Notes: generated from the sequence alone by a model not told the origin. A stretch of DNA of 64,000 nucleotides from Planctomycetota bacterium (GCA_038227875.1 JBBRPR010000044.1:9569-73568), one strand, 5' to 3'; positions 8,747 through 47,398 are shown, counted from the stretch's first letter. A program made the numbers and translations.

Positions 8747-8847
8747 TACCTTGTCGTAAATTTATGACGGGGTATGTCATTTTGATCATCGGATAAATTT
8801 ATGCCGAGGTGTTGTTTCTAACCACCCGGTAAATTTACCGGGTGGTC
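8747..8847. repeat. Triplet of 28-bp NACC-N10|N10'-GGTN palindromes
   Basis: TACC-TTGTCGTAAA|TTTATGACGG-GGTA (8747-8774); GATC-ATCGGATAAA|TTTATGCCGA-GGTG (8784-8811, degenerate); AACC-ACCCGGTAAA|TTTACCGGGT-GGTC (8820-8847). Confidence 0.85.
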
Positions 8848-8851
8848 CGCG

Positions 8852-11800
8852 TTATTTGCTTTCCGCTTCGATCGTCGCCGCGACGGCTTCGCGGAGCCGC
8901 TCGAGATCATCCTCAGACAACTTGCCGAATGTGAATCCGGAATGGCCATCGGGGTTGTCGGCGTGGCGCGTGAGCGCTTGCAGCACCTGGTCGCGGTCCC
9001 AGCCCTTGCATCGGGCGAGGAGATTTAGGTATTCAATGTCCTGCTGCGCGCGGCGCATCGCTTTCATGCGCAGACCGGCGATTGGACCGTCGTAGCTCTT
9101 GCCCGTTCCGGCGAAATTCTTGCCGGTGTAATAGATGCTTAAGTCGCTGAATTTTTTCCACGCGTCGCCTTCGCCAAAATTCGCCCAATACGGCAGCACG
9201 CCCACGCAGCCCCAACTGTAGCGATGGTAGAAATTCCGAATCTGGTTTCCGGTGGGATCGTTAATGCCGATTCCCAGTCCGTAATTCCACCATTTCTCGT
9301 CGGGCAGCATCTTCTGGCGAACCAGCGCCGTCGACGCCACTTCGCTCAGGAAACTGCAGTCCCACAGATTGCAAAGCCCGTCCCACAGTCCGCGGACCAT
9401 GTGTGGATTGGAAATATCCGTGCGGTACTGCACGCGCACGTTGGTGACGCCGGACGCTTCGACGCCACGCTTCGCCAGCCCCAGGAAATACCGGTTCGCG
9501 TCCATGTCGTCGAAATCGACGGGCTCGTCGAGCAGCCAATAACAGCGCCCATTGGGTTTATTTCCACCGCCGACAATCGGATCGACGAAAAAGCTGCATT
9601 TGTAATAATACTTATTGTTGAGGAAGAATTGGAACGCCGTTTTCGACCAGCCTTTTGATGAGAAATGTTTGATCAATTCACTCACAACACTCCTGAATCC
9701 ATCGACGTACGGTTTCTCGATGGACTCGTCGAGCCGCCGGCTTTTCTTCGCCCATGCGCCAAATTCCGGGCGCGTGGGAACGTCGGCCTTGTCCTGATAA
9801 TACGTATCGAGATTCATCGGCCAGTTCTCATGCACGGGCAGATAAAACTGCTCGATCGGCGTATTCATGCCCGGCCCGCGGTATCCGGCGGCCTCGGAAA
9901 ATGCCGAGCCGTCGAAGAGCGGCCCGAAGCGGGCATCCCATGCCGCCCAGTCGGTGACGTGGCGCTCCGCGCCGTCGCCATCCAGCGGCGGCGCCGCGTT
10001 CTCGCTGATCCGTCCGGAATGCGAATACCGCAGAATATTCAGCGTCATGCGGTGCTGATGAGCCAATTGGTAATACCGCCGCTCAATCAGGGCGTGGCGT
10101 TCCGGCTCGCGGCCAAGATCCACGCCCGCGAAGCTGCCGATTCCGGAATACGTATTGAGCTCCACCGGAAACGAGATCTCGTCAGGCACCGCGAAGGATC
10201 GGACGTGAAGCGAAATATTCAGCGTCGCCGGTTTTTCCAAGGAGCTGCTGCCGATCTGAATCGTGCCTGTGTAGTCGCCCGGCGTAGCGTCTTTCGGCAC
10301 GTAGAGGTCAATCCAAACCGCTTGATTGGTCTGCGCCGCACCGACCGGATCGGACGGGATGCTGAACGCATCCGTAAACGGCGCAGTTGCGGTCAGCGGG
10401 ATGCAGGCATCGGGCAGCCAGCGCTTGGTCTTCTCGTCGGCAACGAGATACCACTCGCGAAAGAGTTCAATGTTCTTTGACGCGGAGATTGTGGCGCCGC
10501 CCGGGCCCTGCAGATCGGAGAGGTTGATCTTCACGTCCTTAAGTTCCGCCGCGAGACGCTGAAGGATCAACTGAAACGCGACGACTTCATTGCGCGCAGC
10601 GCGCAGTCGCACAATCTTTTCAGCGCCGGACCAGACGCCATTGGACGAATCGGCTGGAGCGGTGCTCGCTGGATCGACCTTGGCCAGATCGGAGACCGCC
10701 CACACGCCGAGCTTTTTCTCGAAGCTCGCGGCTTCATTCGTCGCTGGCTTGGCGGCGGCGGGAATGTCAACGAACGCCCGCTGTGTCGGACGTGGAATAT
10801 ACACGCCAATATCGCTGTCGGGTCCTTCATTGCCCGCATTGTCTATGGCATGAATTCTGACGTCGCATTCACTTGGTCCCGACAGCGTCATAAGCCGGAT
10901 CGTCTGCCGCAGCCCACTCTGTGTTGGAATCGGCAGCGAATAACGCGGGACTCGTCTATAAACTTTACCTTCTCCACACATGACGGAGACGTCGTACGCC
11001 AGCGCCGTACCCTGATCGCCATTGTCCCCCGGCGCAACAAAGCTGATCGAGACAATTCCCGTGGCCGGTTCGACGCTCGCGATTTTCAGATCGCCGATCA
11101 ACCCCGGCGGCGTTTTGTCGGTGGCTTCGCCGGTAACTTCGAGCTTCGGCGCCAGCGCGCCGTTTTTGGCGTGGCGCGAGTAGATCTGCATTTCAAACGA
11201 CGGATCGTACGTGTACGGCTTGGGATTCTTGTCGAGCATCGCCGCTTCGGCGACCTGACCTTTATCATCGGTCAGCACAATTCCATACGAAACGCCCGCG
11301 GACATCGCGTAGACCAGCGCCGGATCGACCGGAATTTTCAGCCAGCGGATGCCGTCCTTGTCGGTGTAGCGCGCAAGTTGATTAGGTCCTGCGTGCGAGT
11401 AGCGCAGCGCGGGGTGGAGCCATGTGACGCTGTACAGCCCGCTGTCCGGCCACGCCCACCAATTCGCATCCGTGGGCTTCTGGCCGGCAGCGGGCGAGGC
11501 GCGAAAATTCCAGCACGGCGCGCCGGGTTCGACTTGCCCGTCGACCGTCGGTTCGCGCCAGTCGCTGGCGACGGAGCAGATCCCGACGCCGTACAGATCG
11601 TCCTTGGCCATCGCCACATGCAGGAACGCCTGCGAAATCGTCCATCCGTGGATGTCTTTCGTGTCGAACTTCAACAGGATCGTCTTGTTTTCAAAACCCG
11701 ACCAATTCTGATTCTGCCGGATCGCCAGTGTCTCGCCGGATCCCCACGACAGGTCCATGTCATGGCCTTTGTTCGTCCCCGGCCGGATCGACGAAATCCC

Positions 11801-11887
11801 CGCATTGGCAGTCACTGGAAGCGTGACGGATTCTGCATGCGCCGCGTGAAACACCACAAAAATCGCGAGCAGATAAAAGCGTTGCAT
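8852..11887 (-). CDS. Large secreted multidomain glycoside-hydrolase-like protein (DUF4091/GH123-like C-terminal half, FN3-like middle)
   Basis: Signal peptide MQRFYLLAIF...AHA. FN3-like DKTPPG...APGDNG...DNAGN segment. Motifs LRAARNEVVAFQ, VWIDLYVPKDATPGDYTG, DEP and LRMKAMRRAQQDIEY. Confidence 0.7.
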   Translation of the reverse strand: MQRFYLLAIFVVFHAAHAESVTLPVTANAGISSIRPGTNKGHDMDLSWGSGETLAIRQNQNWSGFENKTILLKFDTKDIHGWTISQAFLHVAMAKDDLYGVGICSVASDWREPTVDGQVEPGAPCWNFRASPAAGQKPTDANWWAWPDSGLYSVTWLHPALRYSHAGPNQLARYTDKDGIRWLKIPVDPALVYAMSAGVSYGIVLTDDKGQVAEAAMLDKNPKPYTYDPSFEMQIYSRHAKNGALAPKLEVTGEATDKTPPGLIGDLKIASVEPATGIVSISFVAPGDNGDQGTALAYDVSVMCGEGKVYRRVPRYSLPIPTQSGLRQTIRLMTLSGPSECDVRIHAIDNAGNEGPDSDIGVYIPRPTQRAFVDIPAAAKPATNEAASFEKKLGVWAVSDLAKVDPASTAPADSSNGVWSGAEKIVRLRAARNEVVAFQLILQRLAAELKDVKINLSDLQGPGGATISASKNIELFREWYLVADEKTKRWLPDACIPLTATAPFTDAFSIPSDPVGAAQTNQAVWIDLYVPKDATPGDYTGTIQIGSSSLEKPATLNISLHVRSFAVPDEISFPVELNTYSGIGSFAGVDLGREPERHALIERRYYQLAHQHRMTLNILRYSHSGRISENAAPPLDGDGAERHVTDWAAWDARFGPLFDGSAFSEAAGYRGPGMNTPIEQFYLPVHENWPMNLDTYYQDKADVPTRPEFGAWAKKSRRLDESIEKPYVDGFRSVVSELIKHFSSKGWSKTAFQFFLNNKYYYKCSFFVDPIVGGGNKPNGRCYWLLDEPVDFDDMDANRYFLGLAKRGVEASGVTNVRVQYRTDISNPHMVRGLWDGLCNLWDCSFLSEVASTALVRQKMLPDEKWWNYGLGIGINDPTGNQIRNFYHRYSWGCVGVLPYWANFGEGDAWKKFSDLSIYYTGKNFAGTGKSYDGPIAGLRMKAMRRAQQDIEYLNLLARCKGWDRDQVLQALTRHADNPDGHSGFTFGKLSEDDLERLREAVAATIEAESK

Positions 11888-11988
11888 AGGTACCCCTTTT
11901 AAACGGACATGTGGAGGAAATTGATACTTTACAGTATGGAAAGAGAATCCCAGCTCCAATCTCGATCGCGATCTTTCGAAAGAGTACC

Positions 11989-16344: not shown

Positions 16345-16386
16345 GTACCGCAGGCTTCCAGTCAGCAAAAATTGTAAATCGCAGAC

Positions 16387-17767: not shown

Positions 17768-17773
17768 CATGAA

Positions 17774-28569: not shown

Positions 28570-29118
28570 ATGGGCATCATCGATCCGATGTTGATGGAAT
28601 TTGATCACGAAATGGGCACCGGGCGCAAGATCCTCGAGATTGTTCCGGAACAGCATTTCAGTTTCAAGCCGCATCCCAAGTCGATGACGATGGGCCAGCT
28701 CGCCGGTCATCTCGCGGAAATTCCCGGCTGGACCACGGTCACGCTGACGCAGGACGTGCTGGAAATGGACGGCTCGTACAAACCCGCGCGCCCCGAAACG
28801 GTCAAGGAACTGCTGGCGCTGTTTGACAAAAATGTCGCCGACGCGAAGACCACGATGAAGGGCATTAAGGATGACCAGTTGATGACGATGTGGTCGATGA
28901 AAGTCGGCGGCAAGGTTGTGCTCTCGATGCCGAAAATCGCGGTGCTCCGCGCGTTCATTTTCAGCCACTTCATCCATCACCGCGCGCAACTGGGCGTATA
29001 CCTGCGCCTGAAGGACGTGGCGCTGCCGCAGGTGTACGGACCCACGGCCGACGCGCAAGGTTTTAACCATAATACCCTGGCGACAATTGTCGCTAGGGTC
29101 CTGTGTTGGTCATTTTGA
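28570..29118 (+). CDS. DinB-family protein
   Basis: FKPHPKSMTMGQLAGHLAE and HFIHHRAQLGVYLRL..V..PQVYGP, with RBS AAGGAGG. The true stop is probably near 29066 (see findings). Confidence 0.9.
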   Translation: MGIIDPMLMEFDHEMGTGRKILEIVPEQHFSFKPHPKSMTMGQLAGHLAEIPGWTTVTLTQDVLEMDGSYKPARPETVKELLALFDKNVADAKTTMKGIKDDQLMTMWSMKVGGKVVLSMPKIAVLRAFIFSHFIHHRAQLGVYLRLKDVALPQVYGPTADAQGFNHNTLATIVARVLCWSF

Positions 29119-29185
29119 CCTTCGGGTCACGTGACCCGAAGGTCTGAATCGTGAAATACACTTGGAGCGAATTCGCTCCAAGGTT
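29073..29185. repeat. Triplet of 28-bp NACC-N10|N10'-GGTN palindromes
   Basis: TACC-CTGGCGACAA|TTGTCGCTAG-GGTC (29073-29100); GACC-TTCGGGTCAC|GTGACCCGAA-GGTC (29117-29144, perfect); ACAC-TTGGAGCGAA|TTCGCTCCAA-GGTT (29158-29185). Confidence 0.9.
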
Positions 29186-29257
29186 CTTGCACGTACTGCA
29201 ACAGGTCAATTTTTTAAAATTGATGATATGGATCGGCTGGCAACGTATTAATACTGT

Positions 29258-31293: not shown

Positions 31294-31307
31294 CCGCGGA
31301 CACGGTT

Positions 31308-31790
31308 TCATTCGAATCGCTTCAACGAATTCCCACTGACAATCCGCCGGAAGCCATCGCCGGCGACAGCAATGGCGAGCAGGGGTACGGGAAACGCAAT
31401 CACGTGGAGTACAACGATGCCCACGAGCGTTGCAGCAATCATCACCGCACCGAGCCCGATTTCGGCCAAGCCCCAGACGATCCACTGTTCAGCTGCTCCA
31501 CGGATCTCTGCCTTTCGCGCCTGATAATCCTGCTCCGTATCCCATCGCGTTGCCGCTCCGCAGCGGCAGCAGCAGTCAGCGTCTTTATTGGGATGCATGC
31601 ACTCCGGACAGTACGCGGAACGCACAAACAGCGCAGACGGGTCGAGGCGGGGTTGGTTGCAGCCGGCGCAAATATCTTCTGTGCGACAGGCTTTATGTAC
31701 GGCAGTATTGCAGCGCGCACACCACGTCCCGTCGGGCTGAAAAAAAATCTTCTCCGCACAAACGTTGCAAACCGCGCCGCAGACCTGCAT
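31308..31790 (-). CDS. Cys/His-rich RING/C1-like zinc-finger membrane protein
   Basis: CNVC...WCARC...HKAC...CAGC, then CPEC...CCRC, and two C-terminal TM helices. Confidence 0.65.
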   Translation of the reverse strand: MQVCGAVCNVCAEKIFFQPDGTWCARCNTAVHKACRTEDICAGCNQPRLDPSALFVRSAYCPECMHPNKDADCCCRCGAATRWDTEQDYQARKAEIRGAAEQWIVWGLAEIGLGAVMIAATLVGIVVLHVIAFPVPLLAIAVAGDGFRRIVSGNSLKRFE

Positions 31791-31964
31791 GGTCAAACTC
31801 TCCAAAATCGCTGAGGCTATACGGGAGCGTACTCAAATAACCCATCTTTGCCGCCAAATTCCCCATCATTCCTCGCTGTGATTTGATCTAAGGTCGGCCA
31901 CCAATCCTCACGTCAGTTTCATGAATTGCGCTATACTTGGTGTGCATTCCGTGGAACTGATTCG

Positions 31965-34455: not shown

Positions 34456-34598
34456 GAGGAAAAACTGACATACCCGCCAAATAGCCCATCACATTTCCCA
34501 TTTTACGCATGCACTCCTTACCACACTTTGCTCAAATGCAGGGTAGACAGAAAAGAGCTGCGTTGTACTTCAACCCCAATCCTCTCGAGATTTTCACT

Positions 34599-37500: not shown

Positions 37501-37760
37501 ACACCGACGGCAAGAAGAGCGCCGAAGGCAAGCTGACGCTCGACAAAACCGCGAGCCTCTCCAACGCCTCCGACTTCGTCGTGGGCAAAGGTTTCGCCGG
37601 AGGCATCCAGTACCTGCGCGTCGCGCGCGGCAACCTGTCCGACAGCCACACCACGATCGAAGAACTCTACGATTGGGAATTCGACGGCCCGTTCCTGCGT
37701 GACTTCACCGGCAAAGCACCAGTAGGGAAAAAGCGCAGCGCGGGAGCGTTTGAACCCTGA
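34599..37760 (+). CDS. Large secreted beta-helix protein with a C-terminal LamG/ConA-like domain
   Basis: Signal peptide; YIDFDGGSDDKDGTS..AWKH; YLEVPGEFW; NDWGGIE; LamG-like IADGNWHHVVV.VDR...IYTDG. Confidence 0.85.
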   Translation: MAHTTRLSFCALTVIVSVLGSVRAGEALTVLEPEKSETVAPRKSERERWAWNQPMATITASGDLEWKPEAFKFEKGASVRYIDFDGGSDDKDGTSTANAWKHHPWDPAATGTAKAGSGIQTYVFKRGVLYRGMLNANESGKPGDPIRLTSDPAWGEGEAVIAGSERVTGWKKGTDRKDIPEGDKVWWVDVAFQPRNVWEISKTGAERIPLARVPHWKVSNPTDVMSEWWSWEQPEWWTGKWHIDFKGHRAHMGIDTKHLDKGEDYYVGATVRTEFAVVMGTPFPTLVEGFDAAKKGLVFQGIWTGDSENIWTGNRYYLEDKPQYLEVPGEFWAERKDGGARVYLRLPGDRDPNQATLELGHHCNLIESKGLSDVVISALTFRWTNTHWDLFQPGWGHPDVPNAAIRIHGSSDGLKVANCKFQNIAGKAMKLDAGKPENHFGRVAFDDNELIELDHGAIEIKCGGRGDVEVLRNKMHVIGQRPHRQDWGHALCVEFPETMHIAGNILDRCYGSGIFVFGGKASGDVRDVGLSRSLIHDNRVFDSLLSANDWGGIETWQCGPHYVYNNISGNAVGYWNCTYKPENKSSACLGFNYYFDGSFKNSVFNNVAYGTTTDRTNKFFSQAAFYEAVPTIENTFFNNTAAHFVLGSNWSPSGGRHMLLGNILIDIVGPVFQWGQLKEDKGPAPAAYPLETTALSKNLLVNCGGGKAFATFEASGKGYPDFASMQSGYAAHKPLAADIGTASSAPIVKDADKQHDFHPLPGSPALEAGVKVFVPWSISRTVGEWHFRRNNSDPTVLLDDHFYATTYFVLRENYFETPVWPLKGVNIAAKDYTQGPLEDWTDSALQLNGTDQYASLGNDTLTKPYDYVHDKKKVTAGPKDLTSPDFTTQNMLIEFYVQPKAGQDACAIVSKLAESGYRVALNKAGGVTLTLAAAGAKSELASGAKIADGNWHHVVVDVDRASGAAAIYTDGKKSAEGKLTLDKTASLSNASDFVVGKGFAGGIQYLRVARGNLSDSHTTIEELYDWEFDGPFLRDFTGKAPVGKKRSAGAFEP

Positions 37761-37850
37761 CAGTTTTGAGTTGTGAGTTTTGAATTGACAACCGCGCGAA
37801 GTCCGCGCGGTTGTTATTGCTGTTAACTCAAAACTAAAAATTCAAAACTG
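37761..37850. terminator. Large inverted repeat with heptamer-repeat arms around a GC hairpin; probable bidirectional terminator
   Basis: Arms 37761-37790 and 37821-37850 are complementary at 25 of 30 positions. Inner stem ACAACCGCGCG/CGCGCGGTTGT. Lies between convergent genes. Confidence 0.7.
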
Positions 37851-37853
37851 CCC

Positions 37854-38903
37854 CTAAGAAACCCATTCCCCGCCCAGTCGCATCGACTGCTCGGCTTTCT
37901 CCGTCCAGATCATGCTCTTCAACGCGTCGGAGGCCGGGTAGCGCGGCGGCTTTCCAGCGGCGACGTGAGACAGGAAGTCGTTGTCCTGCGAATTCGTATC
38001 GTAGCCAGGTTGGCCAAATTCCTTCTGCACGTCGATCATGCGGACCCGCTCAGTCAACAGGTCCGCGCGGTGATTGAAGCGGACGACTTCGATCGTTTCT
38101 GTCCACGGATCGTAGGTGGCGGTGCCGGCGTCGCCGGTGATCGAAAGCTCGTTGAAGTGGCCGGCTTCGTGGCCTTCAAAGTGCCGCTCGGGTTTGGCCA
38201 GGCCATCGACCTGCGCGGCACGGCGCGTGTCGAAATTGATGGTGCCCTGCGCGCCATCTTTGAATTGAAAGACGGAGACCACGTTGTCTTCGATCTCGTA
38301 GTGCCGGATGAGCTTCGGCGCGGCGATCGCAATCGTGCGGAGCGGTTCGCCAAAGAAGAAGCGGAAGAGATCCACCTGGTGGCAGAGTTTCTCGTAGAAA
38401 ATGCCGCCAGTCCGCGCGCGCGACATGTAGCCGGGAACGTGATGCGGCCCGGAAAATTGCGTCTGGCTGATGCGGCTGAGCCGGCCCAGCGCGCCGGACG
38501 CAATGACATGCTGCATCGCGCGCATGATGCCGCAGTAACGTAGGAGAAATCCGCACTGAAACGGAATGCCGCGCGCAGCCGCTTCATCCACCAACGCCTG
38601 GGAATCTTCCAGTGTCGTCGAGATTGGCTTTTCGATGAGCACTGCGACGCCGCGCGCGAAACACGCACGCGCCACCTCGGCGTGGCGGCTGGGCGGCGTG
38701 GCGATCACGACGGCCTCCGGTTTGAATTCCTGGAGCAGGCGTTCCACAGTGTCGAACATTGGGATGTTCAACGCCTTGCCGACTTCGTCGCAGACGTCGG
38801 CAGCAACGTCGCAGCCGGCCACTTGCTTCGCGACCGTTCCGCCAATAACGCTCCTCAAATGGGTCTGCCCCATCGCTCTGGCTCCAACCACGGCAACTTT
38901 CAT
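37854..38903 (-). CDS. Gfo/Idh/MocA-family oxidoreductase
   Basis: VAVVGA..MG..H, AVVIATP...H, VLIEKP and GG.FYEKLCHQVD motifs. Confidence 0.92.
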   Translation of the reverse strand: MKVAVVGARAMGQTHLRSVIGGTVAKQVAGCDVAADVCDEVGKALNIPMFDTVERLLQEFKPEAVVIATPPSRHAEVARACFARGVAVLIEKPISTTLEDSQALVDEAAARGIPFQCGFLLRYCGIMRAMQHVIASGALGRLSRISQTQFSGPHHVPGYMSRARTGGIFYEKLCHQVDLFRFFFGEPLRTIAIAAPKLIRHYEIEDNVVSVFQFKDGAQGTINFDTRRAAQVDGLAKPERHFEGHEAGHFNELSITGDAGTATYDPWTETIEVVRFNHRADLLTERVRMIDVQKEFGQPGYDTNSQDNDFLSHVAAGKPPRYPASDALKSMIWTEKAEQSMRLGGEWVS

Positions 38904-39055
38904 GATGCCTCCTTTTGTTGCGACCCAGATCTATAAACACCGCATCAGAGAAACTTCCACTATTAAATTTTATTATCGCAACCTTTCAGGATCTATTTTA
39001 GGTCTTAAATATCTATAAATACTGTTGTTTATGAATTTTAAATTTATTTTAGTAG

Positions 39056-39077
39056 AAGTACCTTTTTAAGTACCTTT
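39056..39077. promoter_or_regulatory. Candidate operator: direct repeat in an AT-rich divergent promoter region
   Basis: AAGTACCTTT at 39056 and 39068, between the oxidoreductase and the regulator. Confidence 0.4.
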
Positions 39078-39102
39078 ATACTACCTCTGGTGTATCCCTA
39101 GT

Positions 39103-40182
39103 GTGATGAAGACCGAAGACCACCGCCTGCTCTATCTTCGCGTCAAAGACACGCTGCTGGAGCAGATCCACAGCGGCGTGCTGCGCGAAAACGCGCTCGT
39201 TCCGGCCAAGGAAGAGCTCGCGAAGTCGCTGGGCGTCAGCGACATGACCGTGCGCCGCGCGTTGATCGAACTCACCGACGAGGGTTGGCTCAAGCGCGTC
39301 CCCGGCCACGGCACGTTTGTGCGCGCGCGCAAACCCAAGCCGGCGCGCAAGGAGAACCTCTGCCTGGCCGTCGTTTCCAACACGGATCTCTCCGGCATCC
39401 GCGGAAGTTTATTTTACGTGCGGCTGTTGCAGAGCATGCATCAGGCCGCCGACACCAGCGGCGCGTTTCTGGCGATCAAGAAAGCGACCGCGCCGTACAC
39501 CGATTTTGCCGCGGCGCTTAAAGCGCAGCACATCTCCGGCATTGTCCTGATGGGCGGCGTCGACGACATGGCGATCACGACGCTGCGGGCCGCGCGCATT
39601 CCCGCGGTGCTGCTCGACAACGCGCCCCTCATCGGCGAACCACTGGACGAGGTCAACCATGCCGGCGAACCCGTCGCCTTCGAAGCCGTCAGCGAATTGA
39701 TTCAACTGGGCCACCAACGCATCGCGATCATGGTCACGCGCGCCACGTCGTACTTTTTCAAGCAGCGGCTCGATGGCTACCGGCGCGCGCTGAATCATGC
39801 GAACATCACGCCGGATCCAAAATGGGTGATCGAAGCGGAGCCCACCAGCCAGGCGGCGTACACCGCCGCGCTCCGCTTGCTGCGCGACGACAAGAGCATC
39901 ACGGCGCTATTCTGTGCCTCCGATGAACTGGCGCTCGGCGCGATGGCCGCGGCGCGGGACAGCGGTCTAAAAATTCCAGCAGACTTCAGCGTCGCCGGAT
40001 TTGGCGACATCGGCCTGTTCTCCGCGCCGGCGCTCTCATCCGTGCGCGTGCCGCTGGAGCAGATGGGCCGGCTGGCGGTCGAAACGCTGCTGCGGCGCAT
40101 TCAAGACCCGTCTTTGCCGCCGCAACAGACGATTTTAGGCTGCGAATGGATCGCACGCGGGTCGACGGGATTGCGGCGGTAA
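39103..40182 (+). CDS. GntR-HTH / LacI-type sugar-binding transcriptional regulator (AraR-like architecture)
   Basis: ELAKSLGVSDMTVRRAL..L..EG..R.PGHGTFV, plus LGHQRIA, TALFCASDELALG and IPADFSVAGF.D. Confidence 0.92.
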   Translation: MMKTEDHRLLYLRVKDTLLEQIHSGVLRENALVPAKEELAKSLGVSDMTVRRALIELTDEGWLKRVPGHGTFVRARKPKPARKENLCLAVVSNTDLSGIRGSLFYVRLLQSMHQAADTSGAFLAIKKATAPYTDFAAALKAQHISGIVLMGGVDDMAITTLRAARIPAVLLDNAPLIGEPLDEVNHAGEPVAFEAVSELIQLGHQRIAIMVTRATSYFFKQRLDGYRRALNHANITPDPKWVIEAEPTSQAAYTAALRLLRDDKSITALFCASDELALGAMAAARDSGLKIPADFSVAGFGDIGLFSAPALSSVRVPLEQMGRLAVETLLRRIQDPSLPPQQTILGCEWIARGSTGLRR

Positions 40183-40208
40183 CCCTGTGGCAAATTTGTC
40201 ACAGGATT
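40181..40208. repeat. Single 28-bp palindrome of the NACC...GGTN family
   Basis: AACC-CTGTGGCAAA|TTTGTCACAG-GATT, overlapping the regulator's TAA stop. Confidence 0.75.
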
Positions 40209-40227
40209 CATTTATGGGAGTAAAACG

Positions 40228-41310
40228 ATGAGCACCAAATCAAGCAAGGCTTTGCGCGTTCTCGTAGCCGGCTGCGGCCGCATGGGCGGCTCGCACGCCA
40301 AGGTATATCACGCACATCCGGAATTCTCCGTCGCCGGCCTGGTCAGCCGCAACGAGAGCAAGGATGCGCTCAACCGCGAACTCGGCGGCGGCATCCCGGT
40401 CTTCTCCGACTACCGCAAAGCACTGGAGACCACGAAGCCCGACGTCGTCAGCATCAACACCTATCCGGACACGCACGAAGACTACGCGGTGCGTGCGTTT
40501 GAATCCGGCGCGCACGTCTTCCTGGAAAAACCGATCGCCTCAACGGTCGCCGGCGGACGGCGCGTGATCGAAGCCGCTCAACGCGCGCGCAAGAAAATGG
40601 TCGTCGGCTACGTACTGCGCCACCACCCGACGTGGACGAAATTCGTCGAAATCGCGCAGGGGCTCGGCAAGCCTCTGGTAATGCGCATGAACCTCAACCA
40701 GCAGAGCCGCGCTGAAACCTGGACGGTCGCGAAAAACCTGATGCTCACGTCGTCGCCGATCGTCGACTGCGGCGTCCACTACGTCGATGTGATGTGCCAG
40801 ATGACCGGCTCGCTGCCAATTCGAGTCTCGGCCATCGGCGCGCGGCTAAGCGACGAAATCGCCAAGGACATGTACAACTACGGCCAGCTGCAGGTCGTCT
40901 TCAAAGACGGTTCGGTCGGCTGGTACGAAGCCGGTTGGGGTCCGATGGTCAGCGAGACGGCGTACTTCGTGAAAGATGTTTTCGGACCCAAAGGCAGCGT
41001 CAGCATCACCGCGCAAACCCACAGCGACGCACGCTCCGACCGCTTCGACGCTCACGCCCGCACCGATTGCCTGAAAGTCCATCACGCGCAACTCGATGCA
41101 AAGGGCGAGTTTGTCAAGAAGGACGAACTGCTCGACATGAGCGACGAGCCCGACCACGCCGAAATGTGCCTGCGGGAACAGCAGTACCTCTTGAAAGCGA
41201 TCCGCGAAGACATCGACCTGACGCAGCACATGACCGACGCGCTGACCAGCCTGCGCATTGTGCTCGCCGCCGACGAATCGGTGCGCTCGGGGAAGACGGT
41301 GGAACTATAG
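40228..41310 (+). CDS. Gfo/Idh/MocA-family oxidoreductase
   Basis: VLVAGCGRMG.SH, HVFLEKP and DCGVHYVD motifs. Confidence 0.93.
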   Translation: MSTKSSKALRVLVAGCGRMGGSHAKVYHAHPEFSVAGLVSRNESKDALNRELGGGIPVFSDYRKALETTKPDVVSINTYPDTHEDYAVRAFESGAHVFLEKPIASTVAGGRRVIEAAQRARKKMVVGYVLRHHPTWTKFVEIAQGLGKPLVMRMNLNQQSRAETWTVAKNLMLTSSPIVDCGVHYVDVMCQMTGSLPIRVSAIGARLSDEIAKDMYNYGQLQVVFKDGSVGWYEAGWGPMVSETAYFVKDVFGPKGSVSITAQTHSDARSDRFDAHARTDCLKVHHAQLDAKGEFVKKDELLDMSDEPDHAEMCLREQQYLLKAIREDIDLTQHMTDALTSLRIVLAADESVRSGKTVEL

Positions 41311-41315
41311 CGCTA

Positions 41316-41343
41316 GACCTTTGTGCCTTTGGGCACAAAGGTC
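41316..41343. repeat. Single 28-bp palindrome of the NACC...GGTN family
   Basis: GACC-TTTGTGCCTT|TGGGCACAAA-GGTC, 5 bp after the stop codon. Confidence 0.8.
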
Positions 41344-41492
41344 TGTCCCAATCCGCACAATTTCTGAAACCCCTTGCTCGAAAACCTTCTCCCTGAGTAG
41401 CATGAGATGCTGCCCAGCCCGTTGATAACCTTTGGGCGGAGAAACGCTGCGGAATTGTGTTTTTCAACGGGCTGCCGAGGAGATTTCCTTCC

Positions 41493-42725
41493 ATGCCATT
41501 CAAATCGCTGCTCGTGCCCCTGTTTCTTTCCCTGTTCCTATTGGCACACGCGGAGGACGCCGTGACGATCGCCGAACAGACGACACTGGCCAACGACACC
41601 AACGCGTTCGCGTTGAGCCTGTATGCAACGGTGAAGAAGGACGAGAAGGCCAATCTCTTTCTCTCGCCGTACAGCGTCTCGGCGGCGCTGGCCATGACCT
41701 ACGCCGGCGCGCGCGAAAACACCGCCACGCAGATGGAGCAGGCGCTCCATTTTACGCTCGGTCAGAAGCGGCTGCACCCCGTCGCTGGCGCGTTGTATCT
41801 CGACTTGAACGCCGCGGAGAAGAACGGCAAGAAGCGCGGTTTTCAGCTCAGCGTCGCCAACCGGCTCTTTGCGCAGAAGAACTACAAGCTGCGTGCCGAT
41901 TTCATGGAGCTGACGCAACACGCGTACGGCGCGGGCGTCGAGGAGCTGGACATTACCGCCGATGCCGAGGCCGCTCGGCAGTACATCAATACGTGGGTCG
42001 AAAAGAAGACCAACACGCGCATCAAGGATCTGATCCCGCCCAAAGGCGTCCGGGGTTCGGTGCTGGTGCTGGTCAATGCGATCTACTTCAAGGGCGATTG
42101 GTCGCATCCGTTTGAAAAGGCCGCGACGGTCAACGCGCCATTTCACGCTGCCGACGGAGACGTCGACGTACCGTTGATGAACCAGACCGGCGAGTTCGGG
42201 TATTTTGAAACGGATGGTGTTCAGGGATTGGAGCTTCCCTATTCCGGCGACGAATTGTCGATGGTCGTGCTGCTTCCCAAGAAGGCCGGCGCGTTGGCGC
42301 AGTTGGAAGACGCTCTGACGCCGGCCGGTCTGCAAACCATGCTCACAGCGCTTGCGCCTCAGGAGGTACAGGTCGGGCTGCCCAAGTTCAAAATCAAATG
42401 GGGCACAGTGAATCTCGCGGACGCGATGCAGAAGCTCGGCATGACCGACGCGTTTCAGGCGAATGCGAACTTCTCCGGCATCACTGACTCGCCGGATGGC
42501 ATGTTCATCGGCGCGATCTTTCACCAGGCCTTCGTCGACGTCAACGAAGAAGGAACCGAAGCCGCGGCCGCCACGGCGGTGGTGATGAAACCCGGCGGCG
42601 CGCCACCGGCACGCAAAGAACCGAAAGTCTTCCGCGCGGACCGGCCGTTCCTCTTCCTGATCCGCGAAAGGGCGACCGGGACGATTCTGTTCATGGGGCG
42701 GGTGCTTAATCCCAAAGGGGAATGA
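41493..42725 (+). CDS. Secreted serpin (serine protease inhibitor)
   Basis: NLFLSPYS, INTWVEKKTNTRIKDL, LVNAIYFKGDW, hinge VNEEGTEAAAAT and FRADRPFLF.I...ILFMGR; signal peptide. Confidence 0.97.
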   Translation: MPFKSLLVPLFLSLFLLAHAEDAVTIAEQTTLANDTNAFALSLYATVKKDEKANLFLSPYSVSAALAMTYAGARENTATQMEQALHFTLGQKRLHPVAGALYLDLNAAEKNGKKRGFQLSVANRLFAQKNYKLRADFMELTQHAYGAGVEELDITADAEAARQYINTWVEKKTNTRIKDLIPPKGVRGSVLVLVNAIYFKGDWSHPFEKAATVNAPFHAADGDVDVPLMNQTGEFGYFETDGVQGLELPYSGDELSMVVLLPKKAGALAQLEDALTPAGLQTMLTALAPQEVQVGLPKFKIKWGTVNLADAMQKLGMTDAFQANANFSGITDSPDGMFIGAIFHQAFVDVNEEGTEAAAATAVVMKPGGAPPARKEPKVFRADRPFLFLIRERATGTILFMGRVLNPKGE

Positions 42726-43300
42726 ACATGGCGTGGGATGAATTCACACGCGATGGCGTGAAGGGCTATACCGGCGACGCGCCAATCGATGCGTTCGCCG
42801 TGGCGCTGGCGGATATCGCGGCGAGCTACGAAGACCAGTTCAAGCGCAAACCCACCGTCGTGGAACTGCTGCGCGCGCTAACCACCGTGCTTCGTGCGTC
42901 GCCGGAGCGCTTCGTATCCGATCCGGCGGGCGTGGATTTCGACAGCCTCTCCGTGAAGCGCGATGCGGCCGCACGCCAGCAGGTCGTGCTCGACTTTTCC
43001 CAATGGGAAGCGGGATATTCCGACCGCGAGAATCCCGGCTATTACGTGGTCTGGAAGAAGAAGAATCCCGATCTTGACCTCTTGCGCATTGAGGATTTCG
43101 GAAAGCCGGCAGAGACGTTGAAATGCGATTTTACCGTGTTGACCACGGAACCGGATCTTACGGACGAAGTCGCTCAGGCACTAATTATTCAAACCGTGTT
43201 GAGGACGTTTACGCAAAACTATTATTCAAAGGCATGCACAACGCTGGTGTTCACGAATCGTAAAACGGGACGATCGTGGACCGTTGCCTTCGCCGGTTGA
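42722..43300 (+). CDS. Hypothetical protein coupled to the serpin gene
   Basis: ATGA overlap with the serpin stop; 192-aa ORF; no motif recognised. Confidence 0.65.
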   Translation: MNMAWDEFTRDGVKGYTGDAPIDAFAVALADIAASYEDQFKRKPTVVELLRALTTVLRASPERFVSDPAGVDFDSLSVKRDAAARQQVVLDFSQWEAGYSDRENPGYYVVWKKKNPDLDLLRIEDFGKPAETLKCDFTVLTTEPDLTDEVAQALIIQTVLRTFTQNYYSKACTTLVFTNRKTGRSWTVAFAG

Positions 43301-43307
43301 AATTCAG

Positions 43308-43523
43308 TTAGTGTTTCTGCGATTTCCGGTCGATTTCGTCGCGATCGGCATCGATCTTCTTCAAGGCCTTGCCAAACATCGCCAGCGCGGAAAGGAAAAA
43401 GACCGCGCCGAAAAGCGCGAAGACATTCGCGGCGGTTTCGTGCGGGTGTTCGGCCAGTGCGTTGACGAAAAAAAGCATAAAACAAACGCCGGCACCCACG
43501 AGCAAGAGCAGTCCCCACTTCAT
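43308..43523 (-). CDS. Small two-TM membrane protein
   Basis: Two hydrophobic helices and a charged tail. Confidence 0.5.
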   Translation of the reverse strand: MKWGLLLLVGAGVCFMLFFVNALAEHPHETAANVFALFGAVFFLSALAMFGKALKKIDADRDEIDRKSQKH

Positions 43524-43684
43524 CGCAAACCTCAATTTCAATCCCAGTTATTTTCAAAGCATATCCGCCTTTGCGTTCGGAAAAATGGATTATCGACGCC
43601 GCGTCACTTCCAGTTTGGTCAATACTTTGCAATTCCCATTTTCGTCCGCATCCCGCTCGGGATGCATTTATTCAGGAGGCGATC

Positions 43685-44086
43685 ATGACACGGTTCATAC
43701 CCACATTAGTGCTGCTCGCCGCGGTTGCGGGACTCTCGTCCTCGCGCGCGCATGCCAGCGACGTCAACGTTTCACTCGGGTTCGGTCATAACCACGGATA
43801 CTACTATCCGTACAGCACCGTCTACGAGTACGACCCGTACGTCACGTACTATGACGACTCGGGCGTCTATCCGTACGCGTACGATACGTACGGCTACTAC
43901 CGGCCGTCGTACAACTGGAACACCAGCGTGAACTGGTACTCCGACTGGCACGGCAGCCACAACTACGATCATTCGTACTGGCGCGGCCGCGACACCGGCT
44001 ACCGCTATGGCCGTTCTAATGCGGTCAACACCGGCACGCGCAGTTCCGCATCGTTCCACAGTGGTGGTGGCAGGGGCCATCGCTAA
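43685..44086 (+). CDS. Secreted Tyr/Gly-rich low-complexity protein
   Basis: RBS AGGAGG, signal peptide ending AHA, then a YYYPYS...YYDDSGVYPYAYDTYGYY tract. Confidence 0.75.
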   Translation: MTRFIPTLVLLAAVAGLSSSRAHASDVNVSLGFGHNHGYYYPYSTVYEYDPYVTYYDDSGVYPYAYDTYGYYRPSYNWNTSVNWYSDWHGSHNYDHSYWRGRDTGYRYGRSNAVNTGTRSSASFHSGGGRGHR

Positions 44087-44123
44087 ATCATTTAACCATG
44101 CGAATTGAAAAGGAGTCGCAGCT

Positions 44124-44738
44124 ATGAATATGAAATTACCGATGCTCGCCGCAATGCTGAGCCTCAGTGGAATGGCGATGGCGTGCGAGTACGACAATCA
44201 GCCCGTGCGGACGAGCTACGCGCCGGAAGTGCGGGACCAGCAGGTCCAGCGCGACGACCGGGACATGCGCGACCAGCGCGATCCACGCCCCGAGAACGTT
44301 GCCGACAATCAGGGTCAGCCGCCGTCGGAACAGGCGCTGGAGCCCAACGAAAACGGCGAGATGCATGAACGCCTCGGCATTCGCCAGCGCATGGTCGCCG
44401 GAAAAATTTCCGACACCAAGGAACTCTCGATTGAAGGCCAGAAGGAAGATCACGTGCTGGCGAAGATCGAAACGATGCACGGCAACACGGTGGTCGTGGA
44501 CCTGGGACCCCGCAAGACGATGCCCAACGTTTCGCTCAACAACGGCGCGGAGCTGGCGGTGTTCGGCACGGTCGGCCGCTTGAACGGCTTCCCGCTGATC
44601 ATCGCTGAAAAGGCGGCTGAGATCCACGAGATCCCGGGACGCCAGGAAGAAGTGAAGGCCCAGGCGGAAAACCAGCCGGGTGGTCCGGCCCCGATTCCCG
44701 CCAAGAGCGTCGATCCCAAACCGAACGACGCTCGTTAA
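44124..44738 (+). CDS. Secreted hypothetical protein with an OB-fold-like domain
   Basis: RBS AAGGAG, signal peptide, VAGKI...VVVDLGP...L..G.ELAV.G. Confidence 0.7.
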   Translation: MNMKLPMLAAMLSLSGMAMACEYDNQPVRTSYAPEVRDQQVQRDDRDMRDQRDPRPENVADNQGQPPSEQALEPNENGEMHERLGIRQRMVAGKISDTKELSIEGQKEDHVLAKIETMHGNTVVVDLGPRKTMPNVSLNNGAELAVFGTVGRLNGFPLIIAEKAAEIHEIPGRQEEVKAQAENQPGGPAPIPAKSVDPKPNDAR

Positions 44739-44765
44739 TGCAACACGGACGTCACGGAAAGGAAG

Positions 44766-44797
44766 CGCGCCTCGAGATTCGAGGCGCGTCTTATTTT
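44766..44797 (+). terminator. Rho-independent terminator
   Basis: CGCGCCTCGA/TCGAGGCGCG stem followed by TCTTATTTT, between convergent genes. Confidence 0.65.
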
Positions 44798-44800
44798 GAA

Positions 44801-46183
44801 TTACTTCGACGATCCGTCGCTGAGATTCTCAAGCGAGAACGATCGCGCGGTCGACGCTTCCGTCAGGACAAGGCCCGCAGCGCCGACACGTTCGCGACAG
44901 AACGCCAGCAGGCTGAGCAGGCCTTCGCGATCGGAATGAAACGTGCGGCCGTGGCCCGGATGGCAGCATGGATACGGCGTCGCAGCATCGAGACACACGC
45001 CGTCCCACGGCTGCGCGGTGAGCAACGCGTCGATCTCGCGTTTCAAAAAGTCGAGCCACCCGCTCTGCAGGCACATCAGTCCGCCGCTGACCTCATTGCC
45101 GCGCCACGACTTGATGATGCCCAGCGACGGCGCGGCGGAGTGCATCCATTCACTGCCGTGCTGCGCGAATTCCGGCGCGGCGGGATGCAGTTCGTGCGCC
45201 GAAATCTTCGCCACGATTTTCAAGCCCTGAGCGTGCGCTGCGTCGACAACCCGGCTCAATTTCGCGGCGTCAGCACCGTGCTCCACGGCGCAGCAGACAA
45301 CTTTTGTGCCCGAGGCCGCCATCGCTTTCAGCGCCTCGTCGCCCGCATTGATTCCAATCTGCGGCGCGGTGAGGCGCGAGGCCAGCGCCGGCAGCGCCAT
45401 GCCCAGCCGCATCGCGATTTTTCCCTGGATGACGGTGGTCGCGCGGCGCTGCGCCATGCAGTAGGGCATCCAATCGATCTGCGTGCCGTCCGGAATCTCA
45501 GCGACGCGGTAGAAGCCCAGGCCCACATCGCTTTTGCAGGCGTAATCCCACGCGGCCAGGTCGGAGCCGGGAAACAGTTCCATCCCTTCGCCCGCGCGGT
45601 CCACGCACTGAATCTGCAGCGGCGTGAAGCGGGTCAGGAACGCGGTGGTGTTGGGAACGAGACTGAATTCCGCGCCCGCGCCGAGCAGATCCGCGCCGCC
45701 GGCCTGCGTCGGATGGAGCCGCACCGAACAGTGCGTCATGCCGCGCCGCAGAATTACGCTCGCGCCACACAGTTCAATCACGTCCGGGCAGCCGCAGTCG
45801 GACATGATCTCGAGCGTCGACCAGATCAGTCCGTGCGCGTGGTACTCCGTCCGTCGGCGGTAACCGACAGGAATGTTCGCGCCGCTTTCGTCGCGGAACA
45901 CGCCCTCGGCAATCACCACCGTTGCGCCGCCGGCAACTTCATGCCGCAGCGTTGCCTTCGTATCGTAACTTTCGCGATAATGGCGCGTGGTGCCATCGGC
46001 ATTCAAGCAGCGGATCGCGCTGGTGATCGGTCCGTTGAGCAGGTTGCCGCTCGTGCCGCGCACCAGCACGATCGCCGTGCACGCGCCGCCGTGGGGCGCA
46101 TGGTGTTCGAACATCCACGTGCCCGTGTTGACACGGAGGCCGTTGGTGAACTCTTCGACTTTGATCGCGGAGGTCTGGGGCAT
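44801..46183 (-). CDS. Hypothetical protein; C-terminal half resembles a glycoside-hydrolase TIM barrel
   Basis: LSRVVDAAHAQGLKI..., MCLQSGWLDFL...WDGVCLD...C.HPGH. No signal peptide. Confidence 0.6.
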   Translation of the reverse strand: MPQTSAIKVEEFTNGLRVNTGTWMFEHHAPHGGACTAIVLVRGTSGNLLNGPITSAIRCLNADGTTRHYRESYDTKATLRHEVAGGATVVIAEGVFRDESGANIPVGYRRRTEYHAHGLIWSTLEIMSDCGCPDVIELCGASVILRRGMTHCSVRLHPTQAGGADLLGAGAEFSLVPNTTAFLTRFTPLQIQCVDRAGEGMELFPGSDLAAWDYACKSDVGLGFYRVAEIPDGTQIDWMPYCMAQRRATTVIQGKIAMRLGMALPALASRLTAPQIGINAGDEALKAMAASGTKVVCCAVEHGADAAKLSRVVDAAHAQGLKIVAKISAHELHPAAPEFAQHGSEWMHSAAPSLGIIKSWRGNEVSGGLMCLQSGWLDFLKREIDALLTAQPWDGVCLDAATPYPCCHPGHGRTFHSDREGLLSLLAFCRERVGAAGLVLTEASTARSFSLENLSDGSSK

Positions 46184-46240
46184 GCGGCGTAGTATGAAGT
46201 AAACATTGCGCGGACGCAAGACGCCGTCGCGGTACTACGG

Positions 46241-47206
46241 TTACTCACCGCTGGTGCCTTCGGCGGGCTGCGCGGTTTCCGTGGGATGCGGTTCGGGCGG
46301 GCGTGTTTCCATGTTCGTCATCGTGTTGCTCTTGCGCGCCTTGAACGCCATCACCATTGCCTTGGCTTCGTCCATCTGACGCAGACCTTCCAGCAGCAGC
46401 GCCATGGTATTGCCTTCGATCGTGCGCTTCTCCGACGGCTCGGTGCCTTCAAAGCGGAACGCTCCCGAGCGCAAATGGAAGAGCAGGAAGAGCGCATCAG
46501 GGCCTTCGATCTCGTTGAGTTCCGCGTGGCGCACCGCGCCTTCGACGAAGTGAATCGTGCCGACGCGTTTGCCGTCGGTGAGCTTGAGTGTGCCGGTCAC
46601 CTTCATCGGTTCGAACATGCTCAGCAGCTTGGTGACGTCGAGCGCGCCGAGTTTCCCGGAGAGAATGCCGGGCGCGTTGAGCAGCTCTTCGGCTTCGCCC
46701 TTGGGACCCGGCGCCATGCCCATCAGCGTCCCGCCCTTCAGCAGCGCCATGGTGCCGGTGCTGGTGACGGACGAATTGGCGGTGGTCGGCAGACCCGTGT
46801 GCGTTTCGCGGACGCTCTTCTGTTCCAGCAGCGCGCGAACGGCAGTCAGAAACAGCTGCGACGAACAGGGCAGCACGAGGTACCCGTCGCGGGCGATTTC
46901 CGGGCCCATCGCGTCGAGTTTCGTGACTTTGTAATCTTTGCGGATCAGGAACAGAAAGGGGATGCGGCAGAATTTATCGGCGGAGCGCACCGCGCGGAAG
47001 AGTGTCAGCGAATCGCCGCTCATCGTGGTCAGATCCAGCACGATGCAGGCGACGGTGCCGACTTTGATGCAATCCCAGGCGTCTTTGGCGTTTTGTGCGG
47101 TCAGTGCGGTTTCGTCGGATTGGTGGAGTATCGCGGCGAGCGCACCAAGGGTGTTGTCGCTCTGACAGACCAGTAAAACACTGCGCGCATTCCCAGCCTG
47201 AGCCAT
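46241..47206 (-). CDS. Atypical receiver domain fused to a DUF4388/PATAN-like domain
   Basis: CIVLDL...IPFLFL receiver fold. C-terminal LSGKLG.L....LL.......TG.L.......G.I.F..G.V.HA...G.DAL..L.....G.F.F...I.....ALLLEGLRQMDE. Confidence 0.85.
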   Translation of the reverse strand: MAQAGNARSVLLVCQSDNTLGALAAILHQSDETALTAQNAKDAWDCIKVGTVACIVLDLTTMSGDSLTLFRAVRSADKFCRIPFLFLIRKDYKVTKLDAMGPEIARDGYLVLPCSSQLFLTAVRALLEQKSVRETHTGLPTTANSSVTSTGTMALLKGGTLMGMAPGPKGEAEELLNAPGILSGKLGALDVTKLLSMFEPMKVTGTLKLTDGKRVGTIHFVEGAVRHAELNEIEGPDALFLLFHLRSGAFRFEGTEPSEKRTIEGNTMALLLEGLRQMDEAKAMVMAFKARKSNTMTNMETRPPEPHPTETAQPAEGTSGE

Positions 47207-47315
47207 AACTTTGTCATCATGGCACCGAAGCACTTGCAATTCAACTACCGTCTACAGCGCATTTGCGCGCTATAGGGTGGAATAACGTCTGGACGCAGGA
47301 AGTTTCTGCCGATGC

Positions 47316-47398
47316 CACCGTGGTTACAATTGTAACAGGGGTACCTCAGGCAAATTTGCCTGAAGGTCGGACCTTGTCGACCGGTGTCGACAAGGGTC
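47316..47398. repeat. Abutting triplet of NACC...GGTN palindromes (28, 27 and 29 bp)
   Basis: CACC-GTGGTTACAA|TTGTAACAGG-GGTA (47316-47343); TACC-TCAGGCAAA|TTTGCCTGAA-GGTC (47342-47368); GACC-TTGTCGACCG|GTGTCGACAA-GGGTC (47370-47398). Confidence 0.8.

Follow-up and report, generated by a model that had tools for sequence, protein, structure and literature searches.

A genome-wide family of 26-bp palindromes in a Planctomycetota bacterium, with related palindromes inside genes for ParB-like proteins

Introduction

Repetitive extragenic palindromic (REP) sequences belong to the most frequent non-coding elements of bacterial genomes, and to our knowledge the REP-associated tyrosine transposase (RAYT) is the only established protein partner of dispersed palindromes. 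Here we describe a family of short palindromes with ACC...GGT ends, noticed as eleven units at five loci in a 64,000-nt stretch of DNA from a Planctomycetota bacterium (GCA_038227875.1, JBBRPR010000044.1:9569-73568; this whole stretch is called the window below). The genome appears to offer a second partnership, with ParB-like proteins, whose genes each contain what looks like the master copy of one repeat subfamily.

The palindromes share much with REPs, with bacterial interspersed mosaic elements (BIMEs) and with REP doublets forming hairpins (REPINs) and their RAYT partners. They are short, high in copy number and intergenic, they lie mostly after the 3' ends of genes, they form arrays with linkers, and their spread is patchy and lineage-specific. 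As in REP/REPIN systems, the stems show complementary changes, and each subfamily seems to belong with one particular paralog of a single-gene protein family. Unlike REPs, they have no GTAG/CGTC tag and an almost loopless stem, the associated gene is ParB-like where REPs have an HUH Y1 transposase, its cognate copy is internal instead of flanking, and the Y1_Tnp genes of this genome are accompanied by other repeats. The first-pass annotation of the window had contrasted the family with REPs on the ground that the latter are conserved in sequence; this contrast is unsafe, since REP families with complementary stem changes are in print (PMC3733652, Figure 1 legend). The GTAG/CGTC tags and the RAYT partners of REPs are described in the same paper.

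The second group of relatives comprises ParB-parS, Noc-NBS and KorB-OB, in which CTPase clamps of the ParB family bind short palindromes as dimers. Common to these and to the present case are a twofold-symmetric site and a site in the protein's own gene, and the present proteins are predicted to have a ParB N-terminal domain and a helix-turn-helix as well; in Noc-NBS and KorB-OB, as here, many sites are also scattered over the replicon. A site inside the gene is familiar for parS, which occurs within spo0J of Bacillus subtilis. The differences are that the site is 26 bp here and 13-16 bp there, that hundreds of copies and dozens of variants are found here, that about 8-15 paralogs are present in one chromosome, that flanking DNA is common to the copies and the gene, and that binding is predicted. 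The dRS3 repeats and the Neisseria intergenic mosaic elements (NIMEs) are likewise short, have a variable middle between conserved inverted ends, and form mosaic intergenic arrays; in dRS3 the middle is not self-complementary, and the repeats are integration targets of phages and insertion sequences. Inverted ends, a variable middle and mosaic arrays recur in the present family, whose middle is, unlike that of dRS3, self-complementary, and which seems tied to a ParB-like gene.

Relatives on the protein side are the ParB-like proteins of phages and plasmids, including the phage ParB-methyltransferase fusions treated in the text of a survey of the ParB-CTPase fold (PMC12704722). They have the same N-terminal module, and 48 of 72 phage genes have a palindrome at the same place; the paralogs described here are, by contrast, chromosomal, stand-alone and without a methyltransferase domain, and in three of three phage records the palindrome is single-copy. 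The term 'palindrom' does not occur in the main texts of PMC12704722 or PMC13229309, supplements aside. In the full-text literature, with the same exception, we found nothing joining ParB-like with palindromic or repetitive extragenic, or phage ParB-methyltransferase with an inverted repeat in coding DNA. Going by the sequences, REP-like repeats and ParB-type sites appear to be combined here in a way that we did not find in print. The case bears on what orphan ParB-like proteins do and on the role of a palindrome conserved in many phage ParB-like genes, and the hundreds of sites are a natural data set on how long palindromes keep their symmetry while their sequence drifts.

The palindromes form a genome-wide family

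The assembly was scanned whole (9.34 Mb in 176 contigs, 59.6% G+C, 88% complete). The pattern ACC-N20-GGT with at most two mismatches between the arms occurred 230 times, 80 copies being perfect palindromes, and spacers of 16-19 and 21-33 nt gave 0-19 matches each genome-wide. When three arm mismatches were allowed, the relaxed set comprised 271 units with strict ACC/GGT ends. The same geometry emerged from scans that took no account of the ends: among perfect palindromes, a distance of exactly 13 nt between ACC and the centre occurred 163 times and any other distance at most 22 times, and among 1002 sites defined by a palindromic 20-bp core alone, ACC made up 394 of the 2004 outer triplets, the runner-up triplet reaching 71. 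The first-pass annotation had proposed such a family from the window, and the genome-wide excess, the peak at the N20 spacer and the enriched ends bear it out. The 26-bp palindromes are a genuine genome-wide family, in an excess far above chance. Beyond the roughly 270 strict copies there are further subfamilies with AAC, AGC or other ends.

Two parts of the original description had to be modified. A fixed 28-bp unit, NACC...GGTN, had been proposed; the ends and the symmetry stand, and the length does not. The conserved geometry is 26 bp, ACC-N10 meeting N10'-GGT at the centre, and the outer base pair is merely biased (R before, Y after). A control with the 28-bp geometry yielded 11 sites without complementarity. 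The cores had been described as not conserved, which was overstated, since a consensus can be written, ACCyTnnnGCmAA for the left half and TTkGCnnnArGGT for the right. It holds true that positions 4, 6-8 and 11 vary widely, and that they covary. In 69 sites chosen by the conserved positions alone, Watson-Crick pairs were found at 6-21, 7-20, 8-19 and 11-16 in 61-68 of the 69, against 20.5-33 expected, with three to four pair types at each; pairs 4-23 and 5-22 were weaker (48/69 and 52/69). The 80 perfect copies represent 57 distinct sequences.

ParB-like genes carry a palindrome at a fixed place

The lead to a possible protein partner came from an element on contig C10, which lies in a stretch repeated on other contigs, and from at least ten metagenome matches situated inside related open reading frames (ORFs). 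The ORF around the C10 element encodes a ParB-like protein with the motif IDGRHR. A tblastn search with one paralog as query found 15 pieces in this genome, at least eight of them full-length genes of 297-374 amino acids. None is in the window, in line with the original remark that no responsible enzyme is visible there. Several paralogs are broken: those on C39 and C38 contain stops, and C3, C27 and C4/C32 hold pieces. No conserved neighbour or ParA partner was common to 10 paralog neighbourhoods within 4 kb, a comparison in which ParA family models were not run.

The predicted order of domains is a ParB N-terminal domain, a linker and a helix-turn-helix. A profile of 20 homologues matched the structures of Noc (E 2e-5), Spo0J (3e-4) and ParB 6t1f over profile positions 24-185. 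PF02195 was found in two of the 20 aligned homologues and TIGR00180, below its cut-off, in five of six scanned metagenome homologues; homologues frequently have a Dam, MT-A70 or N6_N4 methyltransferase as fusion partner.

It was found that the palindrome lies in the stretch coding for the linker, just before the helix-turn-helix. In all seven scored full-length paralogs a 26-nt palindrome is present 116-122 nt past the motif RRHLKENQRA, and each of the seven has a different sequence; the eighth full-length paralog (C10) falls outside the motif pattern and contains a palindrome too. In frame, the palindrome reads approximately N/D-x-x-A-N-L-x-x-G, and two amino acids on each side change jointly as the arms change. 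Selection at the protein level does not explain this joint change. A dimeric protein that reads the sites had been one option of the first-pass annotation; it now has a concrete candidate in this ParB/Noc-like family with a palindrome in each gene, although binding itself is a prediction.

We also noticed a perfect family palindrome in a 349-amino-acid ORF of another genome (locus L239, G006:C1, 1327815-1327840), the product of which starts like a zinc-finger primase and has the same linker-plus-helix-turn-helix module (ADPVANLPQGTKARDEAAKVVNVS). Because this ORF is primase-like, the module and the palindrome together also occur outside ParB-like proteins.

The intragenic palindrome in phage homologues

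We examined 80 phage loci (IMG/VR, L248-L327) picked by two protein motifs only; the motif was in frame in 72. A 26-nt palindrome with at most two mismatched pairs, centred 81-152 nt past the motif, was present in 48 of these 72 genes. Elsewhere in the same loci 41 such palindromes were counted in 109,437 nt, a background of 0.075 per search window. The phage palindromes are mostly centred on GCAAATTTGC, which codes for Ala-Asn-Leu; their arms differ between phages, and few have ACC/GGT ends. The intragenic palindrome is old and general in ParB-like genes. The gene palindrome was single-copy in each of the three phage records searched for further copies, which measure 31.7, 51.5 and 79.5 kb.

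Genic and intergenic copies share flanking DNA

Every gene palindrome has 2-23 copies elsewhere in the genome within 3-4 mismatches, and the intergenic copies often extend by twelve or more nucleotides into sequence resembling the gene. The tag GTGGTGGATTCTA, which codes for GVVDS within GGVVDSN in the genes, was matched to at least 75% beside 42 of the 271 strict elements, and the linker type beside 59 of the 271; in control windows placed 40 nt farther out, both counts were zero. In the C15-type subfamily (23 sites) the copies mostly have common boundaries, about 16 nt to the left and 14 nt to the right of the palindrome, up to which they match the gene; at C22:111425 and C16:73508 the gene-like sequence extends much farther. 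The flanking DNA common to the copies and the gene marks them as duplicates by descent, and not as independently evolved sites. Judged by these flanks, the dispersed family and the intragenic palindrome are related by shared descent.

Empty sites were also looked for in paralogous DNA. No joined-flank match across a junction was found there; five paired-flank cases were seen, and they led to ParB-like paralogs.

Distribution among genomes

The family pattern was matched 178 times in this genome and 0-7 times in each of 16 genomes from the same taxonomic family; a backwards control in these gave 0-4. None of 400 genomes sampled across the phylum had more than 13 matches, with similar numbers in the controls, and the 400 included no second high-copy genome for a correlation test. 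A few genuine copies are present in other genera (G003, G006, G012 and G015). The palindrome family is all but confined to this genome.

The ParB-like genes were compared in the same 16 genomes. Four have one or two distant matches (40-44% identity), and 12 have no match at E<=1e-8. In G008 the single ParB-like gene contains an intragenic palindrome, which is the one family-like palindrome of that genome; in G001 it is weaker.

Among the matches listed from public metagenome contigs, a stricter pattern found palindromes in DNA of 31-68% G+C; since 16 bases are fixed in this pattern, the evidence there comes from the five free pairs alone. A metagenome population of high G+C accounted for many matches, among them loci L113, L129, L137, L151 and L166. 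Two of the metagenome loci, L142 and L156 (35-36% G+C), have arrays with a period of about 61 nt, consisting of a constant stretch that ends in ACTTATTTTCTAC and then ACC...GGT palindromes that vary by unit. These arrays are a low-G+C counterpart of the arrays in the present genome. In G003 we saw a dispersed five-copy family ACCTCGGGACGAATTC..CCCGAGGT with similar GC-rich flanks (loci L242, L245, L246 and others), in a genome without a match to the ParB-like query.

Placement and signs at the RNA level

Genes were called with a home-made procedure (6131 genes, 83.5% coding). The 230 elements were distributed as 127 between genes of the same direction, 46 in convergent and 25 in divergent regions, 29 nominally inside genes and three at contig edges. 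Intergenic elements therefore number 198 of 230, and most of the 29 'inside' stand at the very edge of an ORF that was called too long. Divergent regions are under-used, with 12.6% of the classified elements against 26% of the intergenic length. For 214 of the 271 strict elements a stop codon was found within -30 to +400 nt, 62 of these elements lying 0-19 nt past it, and in 10 cases a TAA overlaps the first A of the element. Between tandem genes, 70% of the elements are closer to the upstream stop than to the downstream start.

There are 199 single units, 27 pairs and six triplets. The commonest spacing, 33 nt (eight times), equals the 26-nt unit plus CATTTTG. Arrays with conserved linkers, as in REP/BIME mosaics, are thus found together with the short, high-copy and mostly intergenic palindromes typical of that class.

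Two points made about the RNA were upheld. The first-pass annotation had noted the lack of U-tails, and a T-rich tail (five or more T among the 8 nt that follow the hairpin, with both strands considered) was present in only 12 of 271 copies; intrinsic terminators were rejected on this count. It had also argued from wobble pairs in the window against an RNA hairpin, and on the sense strand of tandem pairs we counted 58 G-T and 55 A-C mismatches. Selection for an RNA hairpin would tolerate G-T and not A-C, so the decay looks neutral at the RNA level. T-rich flanks showed no clear bias relative to transcription (29 against 17).

Two further repeats were noticed with or beside palindromes. A mosaic composite with 14 copies in this genome (G000; among them C56:31054, C12:96629, C2 and C1) has a linker of about 34 nt containing GGTACAACACTACCATTAGT and palindromes on either side; the palindromes are wholly unlike one another, and the linker is only 10-15% divergent. 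The repeat CGCGTGCGTTTTTGAATTTT(G/T)AATTTT, with a T-run and an AT-rich tail, was found in 32 places (among them C12:96527 and 96765, C17:42584 and 42873), often adjoining palindrome arrays, and may be the true terminator-like module of the genome.

Explanations for the dispersed palindromes

The explanation that we favour, and believe about as much as we doubt, is that the dispersed palindromes serve the ParB-like proteins for docking and have multiplied as REP elements do. Dimers of these proteins would dock on twofold-symmetric 26-bp sites, as in ParB-parS, Noc-NBS and KorB-OB, with one site within each protein's own gene. Pieces of 40-60 nt around the intragenic site would have multiplied in the chromosome as REPs or miniature inverted-repeat transposable elements (MITEs) do, and copies would persist where a strong hairpin harms little, just past stop codons. 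Symmetry could be kept, with no need for selection in RNA, because both half-sites must suit one protein, and also by hairpin-templated copying at replication, which may perfect quasi-palindromes. Template-switch mutagenesis in E. coli corrects quasi-palindromes to perfect ones.

Several observations weigh against this explanation. Most variants lack a cognate gene, since there are 57 perfect sequences and only about 8-15 paralogs found in an 88%-complete assembly, and only some tens of the 271 strict elements are nearest a gene palindrome. The dispersed C15-type copies are closer to each other than to the intact gene, which bears on the direction of copying between gene and intergenic DNA; they therefore seem to be self-propagating or to descend from a gene copy since lost. 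Because the palindrome is single-copy in all three phage records, dispersed docking sites are not the rule of the clade, and the palindrome is absent from 24 of the 72 phage genes and from the gene of the relative G013. The genomes G003, G006, G012 and G015 hold a few palindromes yet no match to the ParB-like query, copies also occur in divergent intergenic regions (25 of 198 classified), and the joint expansion of genes and palindromes is seen in only one lineage (n=1), in which two expansions coincide without amounting to a statistical test. The paralog itself has no Pfam or NCBIfam match, so that its assignment comes from its homologues and a weak profile match.

A bolder version, which we consider quite unlikely, has the ParB-like proteins themselves drive the spread: acting as a nuclease or NTPase with the ParB fold, such a protein would be loaded onto the palindrome of its own gene, or would nick it, and seed short copies across the chromosome, each paralog tending its own subfamily. 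If this were true, gene and repeats would together make up a system of a new class, the ParB-type counterpart of RAYT/REP, and the palindrome in hundreds of phage ParB-like and ParB-methyltransferase genes would have a first function.

The palindromes might instead be ordinary selfish REP/BIME hairpins, moved as single-stranded DNA by an HUH (RAYT-like) or another transposase and tolerated or useful as 3'-end stabilisers, the copies in ParB-like genes being in-frame insertions or products of gene conversion that have no particular relation to the protein. We regard this as rather unlikely, even though the intergenic placement (62 of 214 within 0-20 nt of stop codons, 70% nearer the upstream stop), the BIME-like arrays of two to three units with conserved linkers, the lineage-specific expansion and the eight matches to Y1_Tnp (PF01797) in the genome all suit it, as do the published REP families with complementary stem changes (PMC3733652, Figure 1 legend). 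Against it, no family member was found within 1.5 kb of the seven Y1_Tnp loci examined, where the genes are flanked by other hairpins, one of them a 24-copy REPIN-like family; the HUH/RAYT link suggested in the first-pass annotation thus finds no support at these loci. The GTAG/CGTC tag is not enriched (20 and 8 of 460 flank halves), the recurrent flanks being TTTTG, TTTTA, TTCTA, AAATG and GTGGA. Only five genes have elements on both sides, and as transposase candidates they were set aside, being ordinary by eye, that is, without a family search (an ATP synthase epsilon subunit-like and a sigma factor-like gene are examples). Random insertion also leaves unexplained why the palindrome occupies one fixed codon position in all the scored paralogs and in 48 of the 72 phage homologues. 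Terminators or 3'-end-protecting hairpins, with the pairing selected in RNA, are improbable in our view. Strong hairpins just downstream of stops, with divergent regions depleted (12.6% against 26%), are what such a role would produce; the near-equal G-T and A-C counts (58 and 55), the T-tails in only 12 of 271 copies, the 25 elements in divergent regions and those between a stop and the ribosome site of the next gene (a 45-nt gap in the case of 40182) speak the other way. Moreover, practically no copies exist in the 16 genomes of the same family, so this is not the general terminator of the taxon, and there is no Rfam match in the window.

Gene-like flanks of varying length, with a few fragments of at least 120 nt, the several broken paralogs (C39, C38, C3, C27 and C4/C32) and mismatches that look neutral could also mean that the elements are inert relics of decayed ParB-like pseudogenes, their palindromes restored by hairpin-templated correction. 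This we find decidedly improbable: most C15-type copies stop at two common boundaries, as a defined unit would and random decay would not, arrays of two to three different units 26-44 nt apart are impossible as remains of a single gene, the placement bias at stop codons is unexpected, and hundreds of gene insertions followed by near-total deletion are costly to assume. Recombination sites, folded like attC or Xer sites like dif, had been suggested at the outset because structure is conserved and sequence variable, and the ACC...GGT and AAC...GTT ends recall the AAC/GTT triplets of attC. Length and copy number do not fit, and we give this idea hardly any credence. attC sites are imperfect, 57-141 bp long, with R and L boxes and extrahelical bases, and form cassette arrays beside an integrase; the units here are 26 bp, which leaves no room for such boxes and bulges, are nearly perfect in symmetry and are scattered over 176 contigs instead of standing in cassette-like arrays, in an analysis that included no search aimed at an integron integrase. 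A replicon has a single dif site, 28 bp long and asymmetric in its central region, against some 270 copies here, whose centres are symmetric. If recombination took place at the centre, many half-site chimeras would result, and both arms were known perfect half-cores in only two of 191 imperfect elements (1-3 mismatches), by which half-site swapping was rejected.

The eleven units in the window

All eleven units at five loci were confirmed by direct reading, and the starts first assigned to them each fall one base before the ACC. The units and one linker are listed below; the palindromes carry no strand, folds are those of single-stranded DNA, and z refers to 200 shuffles.

8748..8773: unit 1 of a three-unit array; ACC...GGT ends, AAATTT centre, three mismatched pairs (decayed); DNA fold -3.6 kcal/mol, z -2.1
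8785..8810: unit 2; left end decayed (ATC), preceded by the linker TCATTTTG; fold z -1.2
8821..8846: unit 3; perfect 26-nt palindrome; fold -12.3 kcal/mol, as good in 0 of 200 shuffles
29074..29099: unit 4; CAATTG centre, one mismatched pair; fold -9.9 kcal/mol, z -5.1
29109..29117, plus strand: linker GTCATTTTG between two units; the 7-nt CATTTTG also joins units elsewhere, giving the 33-nt spacing peak
29118..29143: unit 5; perfect palindrome, CACGTG centre; fold -11.9 kcal/mol, z -5.5
29159..29184: unit 6; GAATTC centre, left end decayed (CAC); fold -10.2 kcal/mol, z -6.9
40182..40207: single unit; right end decayed (GAT); fold -6.8 kcal/mol, z -4.0
41317..41342: single unit; commonest subfamily, ACCTTTGTGCC-TTTG-GGCACAAAGGT, either half-core seen 23 times; fold -12.4 kcal/mol, z -5.5
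47317..47342: unit 9, first of three abutting units; three mismatched pairs (decayed); fold z -1.2
47343..47367: unit 10; 25 nt, left arm short by one base; fold -7.8 kcal/mol, z -4.5
47371..47397: unit 11; 27 nt, right arm with one extra base; fold -11.5 kcal/mol, z -4.7

Nine of the eleven units have the exact length of 26 nt, the others being 25 nt (47343-47367) and 27 nt (47371-47397). An end is decayed in three units (ATC at 8785, CAC at 29159 and GAT at 40205-40207), and 4 nt are unpaired at the centre of unit 41317-41342. When folded as single-stranded DNA, eight of the eleven did better than every one of 200 shuffles; the other three, 8748, 8785 and 47317, are degraded (z -1.2 to -2.1). 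A scan of the window against Rfam gave no match at gathering scores, and a scan for DUF1559 gave weak N-terminal matches only. Contigs of four public DNA runs, aligned to 28500-48400, are short, and among the pieces listed none spans a palindrome locus.

Some of these units can be related to the gene palindromes. Unit 8785-8810 (C44:18353) is one to two letters from the palindromes in the ParB-like genes of C39 and C10, with a single mismatch to that of C39. Similarly, unit 10 (C44:56910) is related to the palindrome within the ParB-like gene of C31, with three mismatches, and the left flank of unit 3, GTGTTGTTTCTA, is similar to the gene-type tag GTGGTGGATTCTA.

Every locus had been placed at or just past a stop codon. 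Proximity to a stop was confirmed, with the reservations that unit 29074 reaches into the final codons of a predicted ORF (28546-29118) and that the cluster at 47317 also lies upstream of the next gene start. Unit 3 ends 5 nt before the stop of a minus-strand gene (8852-11959), and unit 11 ends 17 nt before the stop of a minus-strand Ser/Thr kinase gene (47414-49669). The first A of unit 40182-40207 is overlapped by the TAA stop of a GntR/LacI-type regulator gene (39103-40182), and the next gene starts 20 nt on, at 40228. This next gene encodes an oxidoreductase (40228-41310) of a kind widespread among phyla, and unit 41317-41342 lies 6 nt past its stop. Directly downstream of that unit we also noted a bacterial serpin gene (41457-42725; PF00079, E 1.6e-115).

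Other repeats in the genome

Two further repeats were seen near the Y1_Tnp genes. One is a REPIN-like family of 24 copies, with the stem CACTGGTGGCT, an 8-nt loop and AGCCACCAGTG, found at G000 C24:22149-23030 (locus L008) and in 22 other places. Its copies are often inverted pairs about 140 nt apart, two of them bracket a Y1_Tnp (RAYT-like) gene, and the family is unrelated to the ACC...GGT palindromes. The other is a repeat of about 50 nt, TTCCAGGGCGGCGGAGC.TGGACGC....GCGTCC.CGCTCC, with about 8-10 copies, some of them beside the Y1_Tnp genes of L002 and L004. Its copies in this genome are at the following positions.

C3:47303, C9:158812, C48:51678, C28:101085, C37:67602 and 67887, C24:61523, C40:3470 (G000): copies of the TTCCAGGGCGGCGGAGC repeat

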